DNA from: a virus
UHGV virus genome: UHGV-1858859
Strand: one strand, 5' to 3'
DNA: 44,515 nt
Made by a program: the position numbers and the translations under genes. This document shows, in pieces, positions 37,570 to 43,641 of this stretch. The stretch's first letter is position 1; each line of letters starts with the position of its first letter. The notes beneath the pieces are model-generated. The model made no database searches. It saw nothing but the letters and a program-made list of their open reading frames with translations, and was not told the DNA's origin.

Positions 37570-38736
37570 ATGGCTACAACTCCTTTTAAGGGCGCGAATA
37601 CAGCGCAATTCTATGTGGCGGAAGTGACCCCGGGCGTAACCCCAGACAACCCTGTCTGGTCGCCGCTGCGCAATACGGGCGGTGTTCCTGCGGTAACCCG
37701 CGATGCGCTGACCTCCAACGAACTCGACGGCAGCCGAGAAACTACATCCATCCGAACCGGCAACAAACAGGTTAGCGGGGAGTACGCCATCGAACTTAGC
37801 TCCCGTAGCCAGGATGATTTCCTCGCGGGTGCTATGACTTCTACGTGGCAAGCTGGGGTAGAGATTACGGGTGCAGAAATTACGGTCGCTCCAGCAGGTA
37901 AAACATTCACCCGCGCTGCTGGTAGCTTCATTACTGACGGTGTAGAAGTTGGCGACCTGATTGCGTTCACCGGCTTAACCAGCGACAACGCAAAACCGTT
38001 TATCGTGACCGAGGTTTCTGCTCTTGTAGTTACGGGTTCTGGCATTCAACACACGCTGACAGCAGAGACTGTAACCACCGGCGCTAAAACAGGCGATAAA
38101 TTGGAAACCGGTAACGCATGTAAGACGTTCTCCATCCTGACATGGTTCAAAGGACAGTGCGGGAACCCTGACGCGTACATGCTGACCAAAGGCGTGGAAA
38201 TCTCCGGTTTCACCATTGAACAGGCCGTAAACGCGATGGTGACAGGCAGCTTCCCGTTCATCGGTCTGAGTCAGGAAATTCTTTCTGCACGGCCAGCAGG
38301 TTCTGATTTCTCTCAGGTGACGTTTACCGATGAGCCGTTCTCATCCGTAGATGTGTCTGTGTTCGACGGTTCTACGCCGTTGCGTTGCGATACTCTGACC
38401 ATCACCAACGACAACGGTGCTTCCGCACAGTTCGAACTCGGCAACAGTAGTGTTGCGTTCGTGGAACGTGGCCGCGCAGCTAACACATTCTCCATCTCTG
38501 GTAAGCTGTACGACATGGCGATGATTCAGAAGTTTATCAACGAACAGCAGGTAGAGATTAACTCTATTCTGGCGGGGGTAAACGGGGCTATGTCTTTCAG
38601 CCTGAAACGTGCCGAGTTGACCGCAGTTACGCCAGAAATATCTGGCCCAGAATCAATCACCCAGAGCATAGAGGGACAGTCCACCGGCAATCAGTACCAG
38701 TCATCTATCGTAATTCAACGTATCACCTACGCATAA
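37570..38736 (+). CDS. major tail protein
   Basis: 388 aa, Thr/Gly/Val-rich, followed by a strong terminator and located before the chaperone and tape measure genes. Confidence 0.6.
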   Translation: MATTPFKGANTAQFYVAEVTPGVTPDNPVWSPLRNTGGVPAVTRDALTSNELDGSRETTSIRTGNKQVSGEYAIELSSRSQDDFLAGAMTSTWQAGVEITGAEITVAPAGKTFTRAAGSFITDGVEVGDLIAFTGLTSDNAKPFIVTEVSALVVTGSGIQHTLTAETVTTGAKTGDKLETGNACKTFSILTWFKGQCGNPDAYMLTKGVEISGFTIEQAVNAMVTGSFPFIGLSQEILSARPAGSDFSQVTFTDEPFSSVDVSVFDGSTPLRCDTLTITNDNGASAQFELGNSSVAFVERGRAANTFSISGKLYDMAMIQKFINEQQVEINSILAGVNGAMSFSLKRAELTAVTPEISGPESITQSIEGQSTGNQYQSSIVIQRITYA

Positions 38737-38740
38737 AACT

Positions 38741-38766
38741 AAGGCCCCTTTCGGGGCCTTTTTCTT
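38741..38766. terminator. rho-independent terminator (near-identical copy of the one at 6141)
   Basis: aaggcccc-tttc-ggggcctt followed by tttctt; also terminates the convergent minus-strand cassette. Confidence 0.6.
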
Positions 38767-38995
38767 ACTCATCAATATTACTTCGGTACTCCCGTAACTT
38801 CTCCAGACTTTCTATTGCTTCCGCTAAGTCGGTTCCGGTGTCCTTGTGCCCGCGAAGGCCCATACACAGAAGTTTCTTCAACGCGTGCTGTAGTGCCGGG
38901 TCGCGGATGTCGAAGGCGCGTAGCACATCATAAACGTCTACTGTCATTGTGCTGCCGTGAGTATTTGTCATTGTGCGGTTGTATTTTGAAGTCAT
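38765..38995 (-). CDS. hypothetical protein
   Basis: 76-aa ORF, last gene of the minus-strand cassette. Confidence 0.45.
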   Translation of the reverse strand: MTSKYNRTMTNTHGSTMTVDVYDVLRAFDIRDPALQHALKKLLCMGLRGHKDTGTDLAEAIESLEKLREYRSNIDE

Positions 38996-40122
38996 CCCAG
39001 CATCTCCGGTGAAATAGTTAAACGTGCCACCTCCCCATATTCGGCGCTATAAGTTATCACGTTAGCACTACGACCGGACATCCAGCCCCCTCGCGATGCG
39101 TAAGCATCTTTCGCGGCCAGGGTTCGGTGTTGTTCGACTACCATATTGCGGCTTTCTACTAATTTCTGATGATGTAGATGCCCTACATGAGCGTAGCTGT
39201 ATGTGCTTTCTCCAAAAGCCTTACGGAATTTAGAAATCATTACTGACTCTATGGCGTCGAATCTCGCACGGTGTCCATGATGCATGAATAGCGTAGTTTT
39301 CCCGTGCTGGACCATCTTGTATACGTCGGGGGAGGTGTCCACAAATACGCGAGGTTCGTTATCGTACAATGTACAGAACATTTCGGCGAGCCATACAGAG
39401 CCTACAGGGTCGTGGTTACCTTGAACTATTAAGAGTTTGACTGTGTGATGTTTAACAAGCGCCATATCGACAACACGACGCACCATACGAATCATGTAGC
39501 GAACTAGTTTCTGATAGCGAGTATCGGCGTCTAACACATGACGCGACTCAGGGGTAACGGCATCAAGACTATCGAAGTGCGCGAAGTCTCCTAGCAGGTT
39601 AATAACTCCTGTTCCCGCGTCTGGTGCTTTCTGGAACGCTGCGTCAAACCAACGGGAGAACAGGTCTTCCGCAATCTTCATGTCCCAGTCGTCGCCGCTC
39701 TCGTCAGCCCAGGCCAGCATACCGAGATGGAAATCAGACACAGTGTAAAGATTGAGTAGTTTATCGTCGCGTTTGGCGCGAACGGCTTTAACAGGAGCAA
39801 CGGGGGTAATCTCCGACTTCATGCCTTCGATTACGGCCTTCATTAACTCGACCTGACGTTCTGCGTCAGTGTCGGTCTTAACCCATTGCAGTTTAGTGTT
39901 GCCGAACTCGTCCACCAGAGACGACGTACCTTTAATCTTGTAGCCGTCAGGCACAAGGTGACTAACGTCGCGACCGTGGCCTACACCTTTCTTAGCCAGC
40001 TTCGCTTTACGGATACGGATAACGCGGTCTGAGATTCCGTACTTACGTGCGATATCAATAATTTTTGTTCCGGCGTTCAATTCTTCCCGTAACTGTTCGT
40101 CGGTTATTTTCTTATGAGCCAT
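38992..40122 (-). CDS. calcineurin-like metallophosphoesterase with N-terminal HTH
   Basis: Metallophosphatase motifs GDFAHFD, GNHD, GHLHH; N-terminal HTH-like segment KIIDIARKYGISDRVIRIRKAK. Confidence 0.7.
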   Translation of the reverse strand: MAHKKITDEQLREELNAGTKIIDIARKYGISDRVIRIRKAKLAKKGVGHGRDVSHLVPDGYKIKGTSSLVDEFGNTKLQWVKTDTDAERQVELMKAVIEGMKSEITPVAPVKAVRAKRDDKLLNLYTVSDFHLGMLAWADESGDDWDMKIAEDLFSRWFDAAFQKAPDAGTGVINLLGDFAHFDSLDAVTPESRHVLDADTRYQKLVRYMIRMVRRVVDMALVKHHTVKLLIVQGNHDPVGSVWLAEMFCTLYDNEPRVFVDTSPDVYKMVQHGKTTLFMHHGHRARFDAIESVMISKFRKAFGESTYSYAHVGHLHHQKLVESRNMVVEQHRTLAAKDAYASRGGWMSGRSANVITYSAEYGEVARLTISPEMLG

Positions 40123-40161
40123 GCTTTACTTCCTCGTGTTTAGGATTTGTCCTATACTAGC

Positions 40162-40353
40162 TCACTTCTCTTTGACATTCGAGTTGCACGCCCAGATTAA
40201 AATAAATACCCACGGCAGCAGAACCCAACCGAGAAACAGATTAGCCATGAATATCGCTAATTTAGCTTTATGGTTGCGCATATGCGCCACGAGAAATGGG
40301 ATAAAATAAACTAAAACGATAATGATTAAGAAGAACATAGTAATACCTGTCAT
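40162..40353 (-). CDS. superinfection-immunity-like small membrane protein
   Basis: YFIPFLVAHMRNHKAKLAIFMANLFLGWVLLPWVFILIWA resembles the Imm_superinfect family signature (from memory); AGGAG RBS. Confidence 0.5.
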   Translation of the reverse strand: MTGITMFFLIIIVLVYFIPFLVAHMRNHKAKLAIFMANLFLGWVLLPWVFILIWACNSNVKEK

Positions 40354-40423: not shown

Positions 40424-40530
40424 GTAATGTGTTAGAATTATTTTGCGCCTAGTGTCGCACACGAAAAGCGGGTGGTTCCCGTCTGGCGCATTAACCTTAA
40501 CCAGTAACCTCTTAACCAAAGGATTAAAGA

Positions 40531-40947
40531 ATGAAACTTTCTGATTTTTATTACGAAGCTGAGGCAGAAAAAGGCGCCCGTATGCCAATACCACTGAAAG
40601 ACGGCACCGATTCAGGGGAGTGGCTGAACGTTGTTTCACCGGAGGCAGACGTTGCCGTTAAAGCTATGAGGGCGTTTACACTTGCGTACCGCGCGGCATT
40701 AGGTAAATTGAAACCGCTTCGTGATAAATGCGAGGAACTGAAAGATTTCTCGGAATACAATATTAAGATGGAAGACGCCGCGACGGACCTTAACCGCCAG
40801 TTAGCACTTGAACTGGTTAACGGTTGGAGTCTCGACGATGAATTTAATAAAGAGAACCTGAACACTCTTTTCTCACAATATAAACGCCTCGCTGAACACG
40901 TTGTTGTTTTCCACAACGAACAGCTTCACCAATTGCAGGAAAAGTAG
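40531..40947 (+). CDS. tail assembly chaperone (G-like)
   Basis: 138-aa acidic protein immediately upstream of the tape measure gene; -1 frame ORF continues past its stop. Confidence 0.55.
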   Translation: MKLSDFYYEAEAEKGARMPIPLKDGTDSGEWLNVVSPEADVAVKAMRAFTLAYRAALGKLKPLRDKCEELKDFSEYNIKMEDAATDLNRQLALELVNGWSLDDEFNKENLNTLFSQYKRLAEHVVVFHNEQLHQLQEK

Positions 40948-41312
40948 ACGCGTTGCTCCAGTTTGCCCGTTGGAACTTCATAACCCGCCACAAACGGCGG
41001 GAGTTTGACAGCATTGCCGACGGACATAAAGCCGCGCTAATTGCTATGGGGGTTATGCAAGACGCGCCGGAAGCAACGCAGGATACCGGGCCAGAATGCC
41101 CCCCTGAGCTATTAACCACCTTCGAGAAGTACCGGGAAATCAAATTTACCCGCCGAGTGGATGACGACGGCATCAAGATGTACCCGCGCGAACAGTTAAG
41201 ATGGTCGGATTTAGTGGCATACAGCACCGTTTCGGGCCAGAATATAGACATGTTTGAATCTGACATCATCATGAGCTTAGACGCTATTTTCGAGGGCAGA
41301 AACGATGGCTGA
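40531..41312 (+). CDS. tail assembly chaperone frameshift product (GT-like), inferred
   Basis: Join of the G frame to the -1 frame ORF 40953-41312 via slip near 40938-40944; conserved arrangement upstream of tape measure genes. Confidence 0.4.
40938..40944 (+). other. candidate -1 programmed frameshift site (GGAAAAG) for a G-T fusion chaperone
   Basis: Heptamer sits 1 codon before the G stop; the -1 frame is open from here to 41312 (GKVDALLQFARWNF...). Confidence 0.45.
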
Positions 41313-43641
41313 TGTAGCTAGTTTAGTTGTAAAAGTATCAGAGCAAGGCGCGAAAGCTACCTCAGACCGTCTTGATAACCTTTCCAAGTCCGCAAAGGTA
41401 GCCGGGGCCGCGGTAGCGGGCCTCGCTTCCATCGTCGCTGCTACCGCGTACAAGGCCGCACAGGAACTGGTAGACTCCCAACGGCAACTGGACAAGATGT
41501 CCGCCAGCCTGAAAACACTAACCGGAAGCACGCAGGGGGCAAGACAGGCATTAAGCATCCTGCAAGACTTCGCGCGCGACACTCCGTATGGTCTTGAACA
41601 GGCAGTAGAGGGATTCCGTAAACTTGTGGCGCTTGGTCTTACACCATCAGAAGAAGCGTTGCGCTCCTATGGCAACACTGCCGCTGCTATGGGTAAAGAC
41701 CTAAATCAGATGATTGAGGCCGTTGCGGACGCCAGTACGTTTGAATTTGAGCGCCTTAAAGAATTCGGCATCAAGGCTAAGCAGAACAAAGACGATGTTG
41801 AATTTACATTCCAGGGCACTACTACGGTGGTTAAGAAGAGCGCTGCCGATATCGAGCAATACCTGCTCAACATTGGTAACGTAAACTTCGCTGGGGCTAT
41901 GGCGGACCAGGCTAACACACTTAACGGGGCCATAGCCAGTGCCAGCGACTCATGGTCGCAGTTAAAAATGACACTGGCTACCAGTCTTGATGTTGGTGCG
42001 CTCGCCGAACCTATCCGATACATCGATGATTTAATCCAGGAACTTAACGCACAGGTTGCATCCGGTGAACTTGCCGCAGAGATGCGTATGTGGGGTGACA
42101 TCGCGTCGGAAGTAGGAAGCGCGATAGAGATGTCGTTCGACGCGGCATTTGGTTTTGTAGGTGACGCGATAAATGGACTGAATGAACTTTGGGATTTTAG
42201 CAGTAAAAGTATCACCGACAGCGGCGAACAAACGGCGACAACCATCGCGGAATCAGCAGCCGATGCGCTCGATTTCATCGCGGAAGAATTTACCGCGATG
42301 GAGCGCTTCTTTGAAGATATGGTTAAAGGGGCGCAGGACGCTGGCCGGTTGGTGAAAGCAGCCTTCACACCAGGGGAATCTGTAGACGTAGCAAAAAACA
42401 TTAACTTCCAGCTAGGGATGGCACTGGATACTCAGCGCGATGTTGCGGACCTGACCCGTAAAAGTTTCCGCGAACAGGTGGAGGCTCAGCAAAATATCGT
42501 CGCGCTTAAACGCGCGGCATATGACATCGACAAAGAAGCCGCTAAGGAAGAAGGGCTTAGTAAATTTAAGGTAACTGGTACTGGTGGCGGGTCCGAAGAT
42601 GATAATGCTGGTGCAAAAGCCGCCAAGAAAGCTGCGGACGCGTTCGAGCGCCAGAAGAAAGCCGCGGAGGATTTCTACTACCAGTCGATTCATCTCAATG
42701 ACGACGTATTCCAGAAAATAGAAGCTAATCAGGAGCAACAGTTAACCAAGCTACAAGAGTTTTACGGCAACCAGCTTCTTAGCGACCAGCAATACGAGAA
42801 CGCCAAAACTCAAATTATGCTGGAGGCGGACACCGCACGTCAGGAAGAACTCGCCAAGCGGGAGAAAGAACGGCAGGAGAAGAACCAGAAAGGCGAGGAC
42901 TTCATGGCTCAGATTATGGGCCAGAATGCTGCCGAGCTTGAGCTTCTGGAGATTCAGGAACAACAAAAACTGGACGTTGCTGATAGATACCGTGAACAGA
43001 ATCTGATTAACGAGGAGCAGTACCAGGCAGCGGTTAACGCGATAAACGACCAGTACGCATTGAAACGTGCCAACGCTACCGGTAACGCTTTTGGCATGAT
43101 GGCGGACAACATTAAGTCATCGCTAGGCGAGGCGTCCTCCGCGTATAAAGCATTCGCTATCGCTCAGGCCACAATAGCCACATACACATCCGCCATCGAG
43201 GCTTATAAATCTGCGTCCGCGATTCCTATTGTCGGTTGGGTACTTGGTCCGGTGGCTGCCGCCGCGGCGGTAGCCGCAGGTCTGGCTAACATCGGCAAGA
43301 TTCGTTCGGCCCGTGAGCAGGGCGGTAACTTAGCTGCAGGTCAGTTATCTACTATCGCGGAACGTAACAAGCCAGAAGTTATTATGCCTGCAGGGGCGTC
43401 ACGCGTACGTACCGCGGAACAGATGCGCCAGATTATGGGCGAGAACGGCAACAAGTCAGGCGGTGACAGCGTTACAATCGTCAACAACACCACCGGACGA
43501 GTTGATTCCGCCGTTACAGAGCGTGACGACGAAGGGCGGTTACGTGTTATTATCAGCGAAACAGTATCGGCGGCGTTGCAGGACAGCAACAGTGCGATCT
43601 CCAAGTCCCGCCGTGCTACACGAAACCAGCCGGGGTATTAA
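41305..43641 (+). CDS. tail tape measure protein
   Basis: 778 aa, Ala/Gln/Glu-rich helical protein with a Gly/Ala-rich hydrophobic segment near the C-terminus (VGWVLGPVAAAAAVAAGLANIG). Confidence 0.8.
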   Translation: MADVASLVVKVSEQGAKATSDRLDNLSKSAKVAGAAVAGLASIVAATAYKAAQELVDSQRQLDKMSASLKTLTGSTQGARQALSILQDFARDTPYGLEQAVEGFRKLVALGLTPSEEALRSYGNTAAAMGKDLNQMIEAVADASTFEFERLKEFGIKAKQNKDDVEFTFQGTTTVVKKSAADIEQYLLNIGNVNFAGAMADQANTLNGAIASASDSWSQLKMTLATSLDVGALAEPIRYIDDLIQELNAQVASGELAAEMRMWGDIASEVGSAIEMSFDAAFGFVGDAINGLNELWDFSSKSITDSGEQTATTIAESAADALDFIAEEFTAMERFFEDMVKGAQDAGRLVKAAFTPGESVDVAKNINFQLGMALDTQRDVADLTRKSFREQVEAQQNIVALKRAAYDIDKEAAKEEGLSKFKVTGTGGGSEDDNAGAKAAKKAADAFERQKKAAEDFYYQSIHLNDDVFQKIEANQEQQLTKLQEFYGNQLLSDQQYENAKTQIMLEADTARQEELAKREKERQEKNQKGEDFMAQIMGQNAAELELLEIQEQQKLDVADRYREQNLINEEQYQAAVNAINDQYALKRANATGNAFGMMADNIKSSLGEASSAYKAFAIAQATIATYTSAIEAYKSASAIPIVGWVLGPVAAAAAVAAGLANIGKIRSAREQGGNLAAGQLSTIAERNKPEVIMPAGASRVRTAEQMRQIMGENGNKSGGDSVTIVNNTTGRVDSAVTERDDEGRLRVIISETVSAALQDSNSAISKSRRATRNQPGY

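Follow-up and report, generated by a model that had tools for sequence, protein, structure and literature searches.

Genes G and T of this phage, which we examined within a window of 44,515 nt (i.e. the whole stretch of DNA analysed), very probably give rise to two products that share a start codon, with the longer product (GT) arising through a -1 slip of the ribosome at the last lysine codon of G. The reading is built on the layout of the genes, the protein families matched by both reading frames, the lack of an independent start for T, and the selection that acts on the site at the nucleotide level. Judged by comparison of sequences, the feature is real, conserved and almost certainly functional. 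The locus is an ordinary member of the known G/GT system, for which close relatives already carry annotations; what we add is modest, namely that the shift can be assigned to the final two codons of G, that its signal consists of NNA_AAG followed by TAG or TAA without RNA structure, and that an invariant GCG-YTG is found downstream.

The genome belongs to Kagunavirus (Guernseyvirinae), and the 1.2 kb around the locus are 99.8% identical to the Escherichia phages vB_EcoS_XY1 and vB_VIPECOTH07 and match approximately 300 records of Escherichia and Salmonella phages. Within the tail module, the G/T pair (Table 1) immediately precedes the tape measure gene and lies past the tail tube gene, with a three-gene cassette on the reverse strand (38765-40353) between the tube gene and G. 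The G protein matched the Pfam family PF08748 (Phage_TAC_4, E 2.5e-8, above cutoff) and the PHROG families phrog_15027 and phrog_313 ('tail assembly chaperone'), and the -1 ORF (T) matched PF23812 (Phage_TAC_18, E 4.6e-19, above cutoff). Since G (positions 1-138) and the -1 ORF (positions 143-259) together fill the single phrog_15027 profile (259 positions), this family was evidently built from joined products. The last 8 nt of T are shared with the tape measure gene, beginning at the ATG of the latter (ATGGCTGA), and the match of the tape measure protein to Pfam TMP_3 fell below the cutoff. A PDB sequence search with the GT profile returned nothing meaningful (best E 0.4). The G-T type chaperone fusion proposed in an earlier note on this DNA thus gains support from the protein families, the gene order, the absent T start and the invariant A_AAG with its TAG/TAA.

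Table 1. Coordinates of the G/T locus and of neighbouring tail genes within the window.
Feature	Position	Strand	Remarks
Tail tube protein gene	37570..38736	+	388 aa; Pfam PF18906 Phage_tube_2, E 6.2e-34
Gene G, tail assembly chaperone	40531..40947	+	from the ORF list; ATG to TAG, 138 aa, 15.9 kDa
Predicted GT fusion	40531..41312	+	codons 40531-40944, 1-nt backward slip, then 40944-41309
Overlap, -1 frame already open	40896..40947	+	TGA 40893-40895 closes the -1 frame upstream
Putative shift site G_GAA_AAG	40938..40944	+	conserved core A_AAG = 40941-40944
T segment, -1 frame	40944..41312	+	122 codons (GTA ... GGC) + TGA 41310-41312
TAG stop of G	40945..40947	+	directly 3' of the shift codon; gives the TA of Val139 GTA in the -1 frame
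GCG TTG (Ala141-Leu142 of GT)	40950..40955 (+5..+10)	+	conserved as GCG YTG; third base of Leu always G
Tape measure protein gene	41305..43641	+	from the ORF list; 778 aa; phrog_1538, E 1.9e-198

Gene G ends in CAG GAA AAG TAG (AAG at 40942-40944, TAG at 40945-40947). As the earlier note had it, the -1 frame is open from the end of the chaperone gene through 41312; it runs from 40896 to the TGA at 41310-41312, which provides a 49-nt overlap window within G and 122 codons past the junction. The heptamer GGAAAAG lies at the positions given there (40938-40944), and only its spacing has to be amended: it had been placed one codon before the stop, which it directly abuts. The statement that it is not of the X-XXY-YYZ kind holds as well, since a P-site tRNA moving off GAA would meet GGA, with a G.U pair in the middle, and G_GAA_AAG is accordingly not a canonical tandem-slippage heptamer, at which both tRNAs re-pair. 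The move that had been singled out as favourable, that of the A-site lysine from AAG to AAA, is the only re-pairing that is conserved, since the preceding codon varies (GAA, GCA, GTA, GGA) among relatives. What the site does display is the NNA_AAG hexanucleotide (a zero-frame A_AAG preceded by a codon ending in A), positions -4 to -1 always being A AAG. The motif by itself is not enriched within the 44,515-nt window (15 copies of AAAGTAR against 11.7 +/- 3.2 expected from shuffles), and long -1 extensions past stop codons are common in this genome because neighbouring genes overlap. Among the AAAGTAR copies, only that at 40941 stands at the end of a long ORF and has a long -1 ORF after it. It is this combination that goes beyond chance: a lone copy between long ORFs, and its invariance in about 80 relatives amid free synonymous variation.

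Relatives were gathered from IMG/VR (with the G protein as the first query, followed by the G-T alignment) and were supplemented by one match to a genome contig and by four contigs from Logan assemblies. The core comparison comprised 78 distinct sequences with identities down to 43%, which share ancestry, so that the counts given below do not represent independent events. The scan of genome contigs yielded one real match, in a Taishania assembly, and this is probably phage contamination. G measures 138 aa in 75 of the 78 relatives (134 in L052 and 144 in L076), the gene of L031 is disrupted by several frame errors, and the -1 ORF spans 120-122 codons wherever it is complete. NNA_AAG was found at the end of G in all 78 distinct relatives and in the 4 further contigs, mostly as GGAAAAG (59 relatives) and otherwise as CGCAAAG (9), AGCAAAG (3), GGTAAAG (3), GGCAAAG (1) and GGGAAAG (1). 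Canonical heptamers occur only in L058 (G_GGA_AAG, the lambda type) and in the most distant relative, L030, which carries A_AAA_AAC directly before the stop. The stop of G is TAG in 56 relatives and TAA in 21 (the sole TGA belonging to the broken L031), the base after it is A or C in all relatives, and it adjoins the AAG in 77 of the 78; the exception, L076, keeps GCA AAG and has its stop one codon later (AAG TTA TAG), with a -1 frame that reads K-V-I-A-L. In the four Logan contigs G is extended at its N-terminus or expanded internally, and ends in TCG GAA AAG TAG followed by [AC]NGCGYTGTAC. A search for protein homologues with the GT fusion gave 5 matches, the contigs of which all show the same junction. 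The stretch before the stop in which the -1 frame is open is shorter in relatives (25, 16 and down to 7 nt), and in the two with the shortest (L077 and L081) a -1-frame TAA stands just before the heptamer and leaves only 7 nt (C GCA AAG) for the shift. The reservation in the earlier note that the site may lie slightly elsewhere is therefore no longer needed, the 7-nt heptamer being the only conserved solution.

Selection on the junction is visible at the level of nucleotides. The 65 distinct junction sequences all agree at positions -6 and -4 to +1 (G.A AAG TA), although, in the G frame, two of these (-4 and -1) are third positions at which a change would be synonymous. When 73 GT coding sequences were aligned by codon, the encoded residue was invariant (Met and Trp left aside) in 37 columns, and only 3 of these had zero codon entropy (Lys138 AAG, Val139 GTA and Ala141 GCG), the remainder ranging from 0.36 to 2.39 bits. 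The freezing of Val139 as GTA is explained by the overlapping stop of G. The other invariant lysine (K205) is written as AAA in 53 and as AAG in 20 of the 73 sequences. Upstream of the heptamer, variability peaks at the third position of the G frame (1.53 bits vs 1.07 and 0.93), and past the stop (+2 to +100, a stretch that lies upstream of the first shared ATG) the peak moves to the third position of the -1 frame (1.37 bits vs 0.71 and 0.59). Taken together, these patterns show nucleotide-level selection on the putative A_AAG shift site. The GCG-YTG downstream, the sole further element found to be conserved, may serve as spacer context for the shift; no pairing partner was found for it.

On the assumption that the slip takes place as proposed, most ribosomes would complete G (138 aa) and terminate at the TAG at 40945, and a minority, on reaching the final sense codon of G, would move one nucleotide back. 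There, the only tRNA-Lys of E. coli (anticodon mnm5s2UUU) would leave AAG (40942-40944) and re-pair with AAA (40941-40943), after which GUA (Val) would be read and translation would proceed in the -1 frame to the TGA at 41310. The resulting GT is predicted to have 260 aa and 29.9 kDa, with the junction ...QLQEK-VDALLQFAR..., a junction-spanning Glu-C peptide KVDALLQFARWNFITRHKRRE and an adjoining tryptic peptide VDALLQFAR. In this phage the P-site tRNA-Glu could re-pair in part (from GAA to GGA, with a G.U in the middle). In the 16 of 78 relatives with GCA or GTA in the P site, re-pairing after a -1 move is essentially impossible, and slippage of tRNA-Lys alone would therefore be the conserved event. 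The signal is likely to be of the NNA_AAG hexanucleotide class, in which a single tRNA-Lys slips, and the setting fits this assignment: close relatives infect E. coli and Salmonella, E. coli has a single tRNA-Lys(UUU) (PMC5009743), and no tRNA gene that could supply a competing phage tRNA was found in the 44,515-nt sequence. Among 16 tetramers, A_AAG ranked first for shifting in E. coli (Sharma et al., PMC4066793), and its shiftiness has been ascribed to the weak pairing of AAG by the single E. coli tRNA-Lys (PMC5009743). It is a minimal Z_ZZN shift site, used incidentally in B. subtilis cdd and productively in IS1222 (Atkins et al., PMC5009743), and at NNA_AAG the efficiency depends on the two 5' bases, with shifting being possible without re-pairing in the P site (PMC5009743). 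As for function, roles can be carried over from lambda G and T (PMC5009743): G and the G part of GT would coat the tape measure protein of this phage, and the T part would recruit the tail tube protein, the presumed partner of the T domain. By the same analogy, neither G nor GT would be part of the virion. Our literature search turned up no test of the frameshift by proteomics or reporters in Kagunavirus or Jerseyvirus, and no proteomic report for Guernseyvirinae.

A stimulator accompanying an NNA_AAG site would be a hairpin or pseudoknot 5-9 nt downstream, or an upstream Shine-Dalgarno-like element, and neither kind is present here in conserved form. When 27 diverse junctions (-9 to +100) were folded, no conserved downstream structure emerged (3 pairs, -0.25 kcal/mol, no covariation). 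The phage's own downstream fold is mildly better than that of shuffles (z -2.0), and its tightest hairpin (CCCGCC-ACAAAC-GGCGGG, 40984-41001) begins 39 nt past the shift site, is clade-specific and is absent from most relatives. No Shine-Dalgarno-like element is conserved among relatives at -21 to -7, and Rfam holds no frameshift element that matches the locus. The Rfam search also returned an unrelated near-threshold match (int-alpA) in the leader of G. Bare Z_ZZN tetramers shift barely above background in reporters (0.147% vs 0.112%, and 5.6% with a pseudoknot; PMC4066793). As no structure is conserved, GT would either be made at a very low level or the stop and the downstream context would supply the pause, which the adjacent TAG/TAA perhaps lengthens; we infer that the efficiency of the slip is probably a few per cent or less. 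It is conceivable, though on balance we hold it to be unlikely, that the stop after A_AAG, the A or C as next base and the frozen GCG-YTG (+5 to +10) jointly constitute a structure-independent stimulator of NNA_AAG. If this were true, the locus would exemplify a compact -1 signal (a 'shifty stop plus spacer') that annotation tools currently do not look for.

The layout could also be accounted for if T were a separate protein initiated at TTG 40953, either directly or through termination-reinitiation, in which case there would be neither a frameshift nor a fusion. A 119-aa CDS from this TTG is indeed called by gene callers and present in several records (XY1, KMB36, Golestan, PBSE191), a weak Shine-Dalgarno sequence for it might be seen in the AGGA at 40937-40940, and the last two bases of the YTG at this position are invariant. 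The same codon is, however, CTG in 53 of 73 relatives and encodes an invariant Leu of the -1 frame; the AGGA lies 12 nt from the TTG and is lost in the GCA and GTA variants. The position of the first T-frame ATG, GTG or TTG past the stop of G varies from 8 to 323 nt, so that initiation there would remove conserved residues, and metagenome gene callers start T from an internal ATG (88 aa) or do not call it. No T-frame start codon is conserved among the relatives, two of which have one also upstream, inside G. Strong conservation extends over the 33 residues that precede the first shared Met, with third-position variation in the -1 frame, the conserved pattern of T in this part being ...A-L-x-x-[FY]-x-x-W...F-D-S-I-x-x-x-H-x-x-A-L-x-A-M-G-V. 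Moreover, a separate start for T gives no reason why the last two codons of G should have their third bases frozen as A and G. We therefore consider an independent T to be very unlikely, and by the evidence of these alignments the T segment is very probably translated only as the C-terminal part of the predicted GT.

If GT is produced by a slip at the last lysine codon, the same fusion could be reached by more than one route. Peptidyl-tRNA-Lys might slip while in the P site, with a slowly decoded TAG or TAA in the A site (a 'shifty stop'); this would agree with the adjacency of AAG and stop in 77 of 78 relatives and in the 4 contigs, with the restriction to TAG or TAA followed by A or C, and with the fact that no other stimulator is conserved. 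It would also agree with the reporter measurements (PMC4066793), since a bare A_AAG is barely shifty and some pause element therefore seems to be needed. Against it, L076 keeps A_AAG with its stop one codon later, most relatives have GAA and one has GGA (which allow re-pairing in the P site as in a tandem slip), and the adjacency together with the A or C could merely reflect coding constraint on residues 139-140. Lambda-type sites, as Levin et al. reportedly found in 1993, work without an adjacent stop. Near-universal stop adjacency thus favours a slip in the P site, L076 and the predominance of GAA favour a slip in the A site or during translocation, and we hold the 'shifty stop' to be a serious possibility, albeit the less probable of the two. 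For this phage alone, a slip upstream at T_TTC (40908-40911) could be envisaged, as the GTT TTC of the G frame places T_TTC inside the 49-nt open window and U_UUC ranks second among the E. coli tetramers (PMC4066793); it would yield a fusion with a different 12-residue linker (...VVVF-PQRTASPIAGK-VDALL...). We rejected this candidate as extremely improbable: in L032, L033 and L036, whose G protein is identical, a -1-frame TGA 25 nt before the stop closes this route, other relatives have windows of 7-22 nt, and the -1-frame peptide encoded at 40908-40941 is not conserved. Slippage of RNA polymerase on the short A run at the site (AAAA, 40940-40943) could drop one A, with GT then arising by normal translation. 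Transcriptional slippage is known on runs of about 7-9, which are far longer than the 4 A found here and the 3 A of the GCAAAG and GTAAAG relatives, and it would not explain why neither the stop nor the G that follows the run varies; we accord it hardly any probability.

The proposed G-T fusion is, in part, already present in the databases. Joined CDSs are annotated in K1G (ORF22A/22B, NC_027993), fFiEco03 (FE3_024/025, MT711524) and Salmonella phage Shelanagig (gp25/26, MK931446), which are 55-97% identical at the locus (fFiEco03 96.9%); two of these three records carry the label 'tail assembly chaperone frameshift product', and all three joins are predictions made in annotation only. K1G, the type species, has the same GGAAAAG-TAG junction. 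Other records of the genus split the locus into two CDSs, and in the announcement of Shashou (96.8% identical here) the frameshift was left unannotated because the site is not X_XXY_YYZ, no canonical slippery sequence being present (PMC6776780). The Guernseyvirinae records are consequently inconsistent, offering a joined CDS, two 'chaperones' of which the second starts from the nonconserved TTG, a hypothetical T, or (in some metagenome contigs) no gene at all. The main value of the present analysis lies in annotation, as the comparative evidence settles the annotation question and places the site at the last two codons of G. The locus furthermore provides a well-populated natural example of NNA_AAG next to a stop without RNA structure, which could help to train frameshift predictors, and a simple system for testing if an adjacent stop stimulates -1 slippage; the understanding of tail assembly is left unchanged by it.

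The closest known counterpart is lambda G/GT (Levin, Hendrix & Casjens 1993; Xu, Hendrix & Duda 2004, 2013, 2014; summarised in PMC5009743), with which the locus shares a pair of overlapping ORFs that closely precede the tape measure gene (of which the second is in the -1 frame and has no start of its own), a shift at a Lys AAG near the end of G and an abundant short product with a rare fusion (both predicted here), and no evident strong RNA stimulator. The lambda heptamer is the canonical G_GGA_AAG, whereas here it is G_GAA_AAG (elsewhere C_GCA_AAG, etc.) and only the A_AAG half is conserved; moreover, the present site abuts the stop, the Pfam families differ (Phage_TAC_4 and Phage_TAC_18), and the reverse-strand cassette of three genes parts the tube gene from G. 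Burkholderia phage KL1 (gp18/gp19, 142 + 264 aa) is alike in the sizes of its products and in that its heptamer stands immediately before the stop of the short product. It differs in that the heptamer is the canonical G_GGA_AAC, the stop is TGA, and the tape measure gene is preceded by an extra tail gene (PMC3483164). KL1 shares other tail proteins with K1G-type phages. With regard to the signal itself, the nearest cases are IS1222 (G_CGA_AAG) and B. subtilis cdd (A_CGA_AAG), in which likewise only tRNA-Lys re-pairs and the preceding codon ends in A (work of Fayet and colleagues, cited in PMC5009743; PMC4066793), and for which a low level of shifting is to be expected where the host possesses only one tRNA-Lys(UUU). 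Their P-site codon is CGA in place of the GAA, GCA, GTA or GGA found here, and the characterised IS and cdd cases depend on stimulators (a structure downstream, a Shine-Dalgarno-like element upstream, or both), of which this locus conserves neither kind. E. coli dnaX (A_AAA_AAG) has a full heptamer, Shine-Dalgarno and stem-loop stimulators, an efficiency of about 50% and a shift that shortens the product, yet the A-site event is the same as that proposed here, i.e. a move from AAG to AAA by the sole tRNA-Lys.

Shortly after the junction between the tail assembly chaperone gene (G) and the −1-frame segment (T), the hexamer GCG TTG (codons Ala141 and Leu142) is constrained at the nucleotide level: the first codon is GCG in all 73 of 73 relatives and the second (YTG) has G as its third base in every one of them; the remaining invariant Ala and Leu codons of the same proteins vary freely. 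A pairing partner was sought for this hexamer, and none was found. Two other elements were considered and rejected, one as a shift site and one as a stimulator. The tetramer T_TTC (G frame), a second theoretical −1 shift site within the 49-nt stretch that is open in this phage, cannot serve in those relatives whose G protein is identical: there it is followed by a −1-frame TGA. The perfect 6-bp G+C hairpin CCCGCC-ACAAAC-GGCGGG (within the T coding region, and limited to the closest relatives) lies 39 nt from the shift site, too distant for a classical stimulator.

Three of the relatives' loci deserve separate mention. In the IMG/VR sequence L076 (IMGVR_UViG_2162886012_000023), whose G carries an insertion of 6 residues as well, the junction (~1630-1650) reads GCA AAG TTA TAG (−1 frame K-V-I-A-L), making it the sole relative whose G stop does not adjoin A_AAG; this could be a natural test of the importance of stop adjacency, or the metagenome, an old one, could contain a read error here. 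Several frame breaks inside G of L031 (IMGVR_UViG_638275545_000001, a Jerseyvirus-like genome) appear to stem from sequencing errors, the record being an old one; the same junction, QLQEK*/KVDALF, is still recognisable. Furthermore, a 13-kb contig of a Bacteroidota genome assembly (L110; NZ_JACVEL010000023.1, Taishania pollutisoli CZZ-1) carries a G-T locus with 93% identity to the window G protein and a junction of Jerseyvirus type; the contig is most likely contaminating phage DNA and not a prophage.

Features around G and T, and leader matches in relatives' G-T loci (L-numbers)
Feature	Location	Strand	Remark
76-aa ORF	window, within 38765-40353	-	
Metallophosphoesterase, 376 aa	window, within 38765-40353	-	'DNA repair exonuclease', phrog_704
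Superinfection-immunity-like membrane protein, 63 aa	window, within 38765-40353	-	
Extended -10-like element	window 40430-40438		TGTTAGAAT
int-alpA match	window 40442-40506	+	Rfam RF02996; 34.2 bits, E 4.3e-5
int-alpA match	L037 1112-1176		Rfam RF02996
int-alpA match	L058 1111-1175		Rfam RF02996
int-alpA match	L052 1114-1177		Rfam RF02996
int-alpA match	L061 1112-1174		Rfam RF02996
T_TTC	window 40908-40911		G frame
GCG TTG	window 40950-40955		Ala141, Leu142
Hairpin	window 40984-41001		

In the 5' leader of G, a match to the int-alpA RNA motif of Rfam falls short of the gathering score (35.8 bits); it recurs at the same position (~25 nt 5' of the G start) in divergent relatives, one of which exceeds that score (36.6 bits). 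Immediately 5' of the window match lies the extended -10-like element. This suggests that the G-T-tape-measure operon has a leader whose structure is conserved. The usual tube-G-T-tape-measure order is broken by the cassette of three reverse-strand genes, which splits the tail tube gene from G-T, and G-T would therefore need a promoter of its own. The same arrangement of tube gene, reverse cassette and G is found in K1G and the Jerseyviruses.
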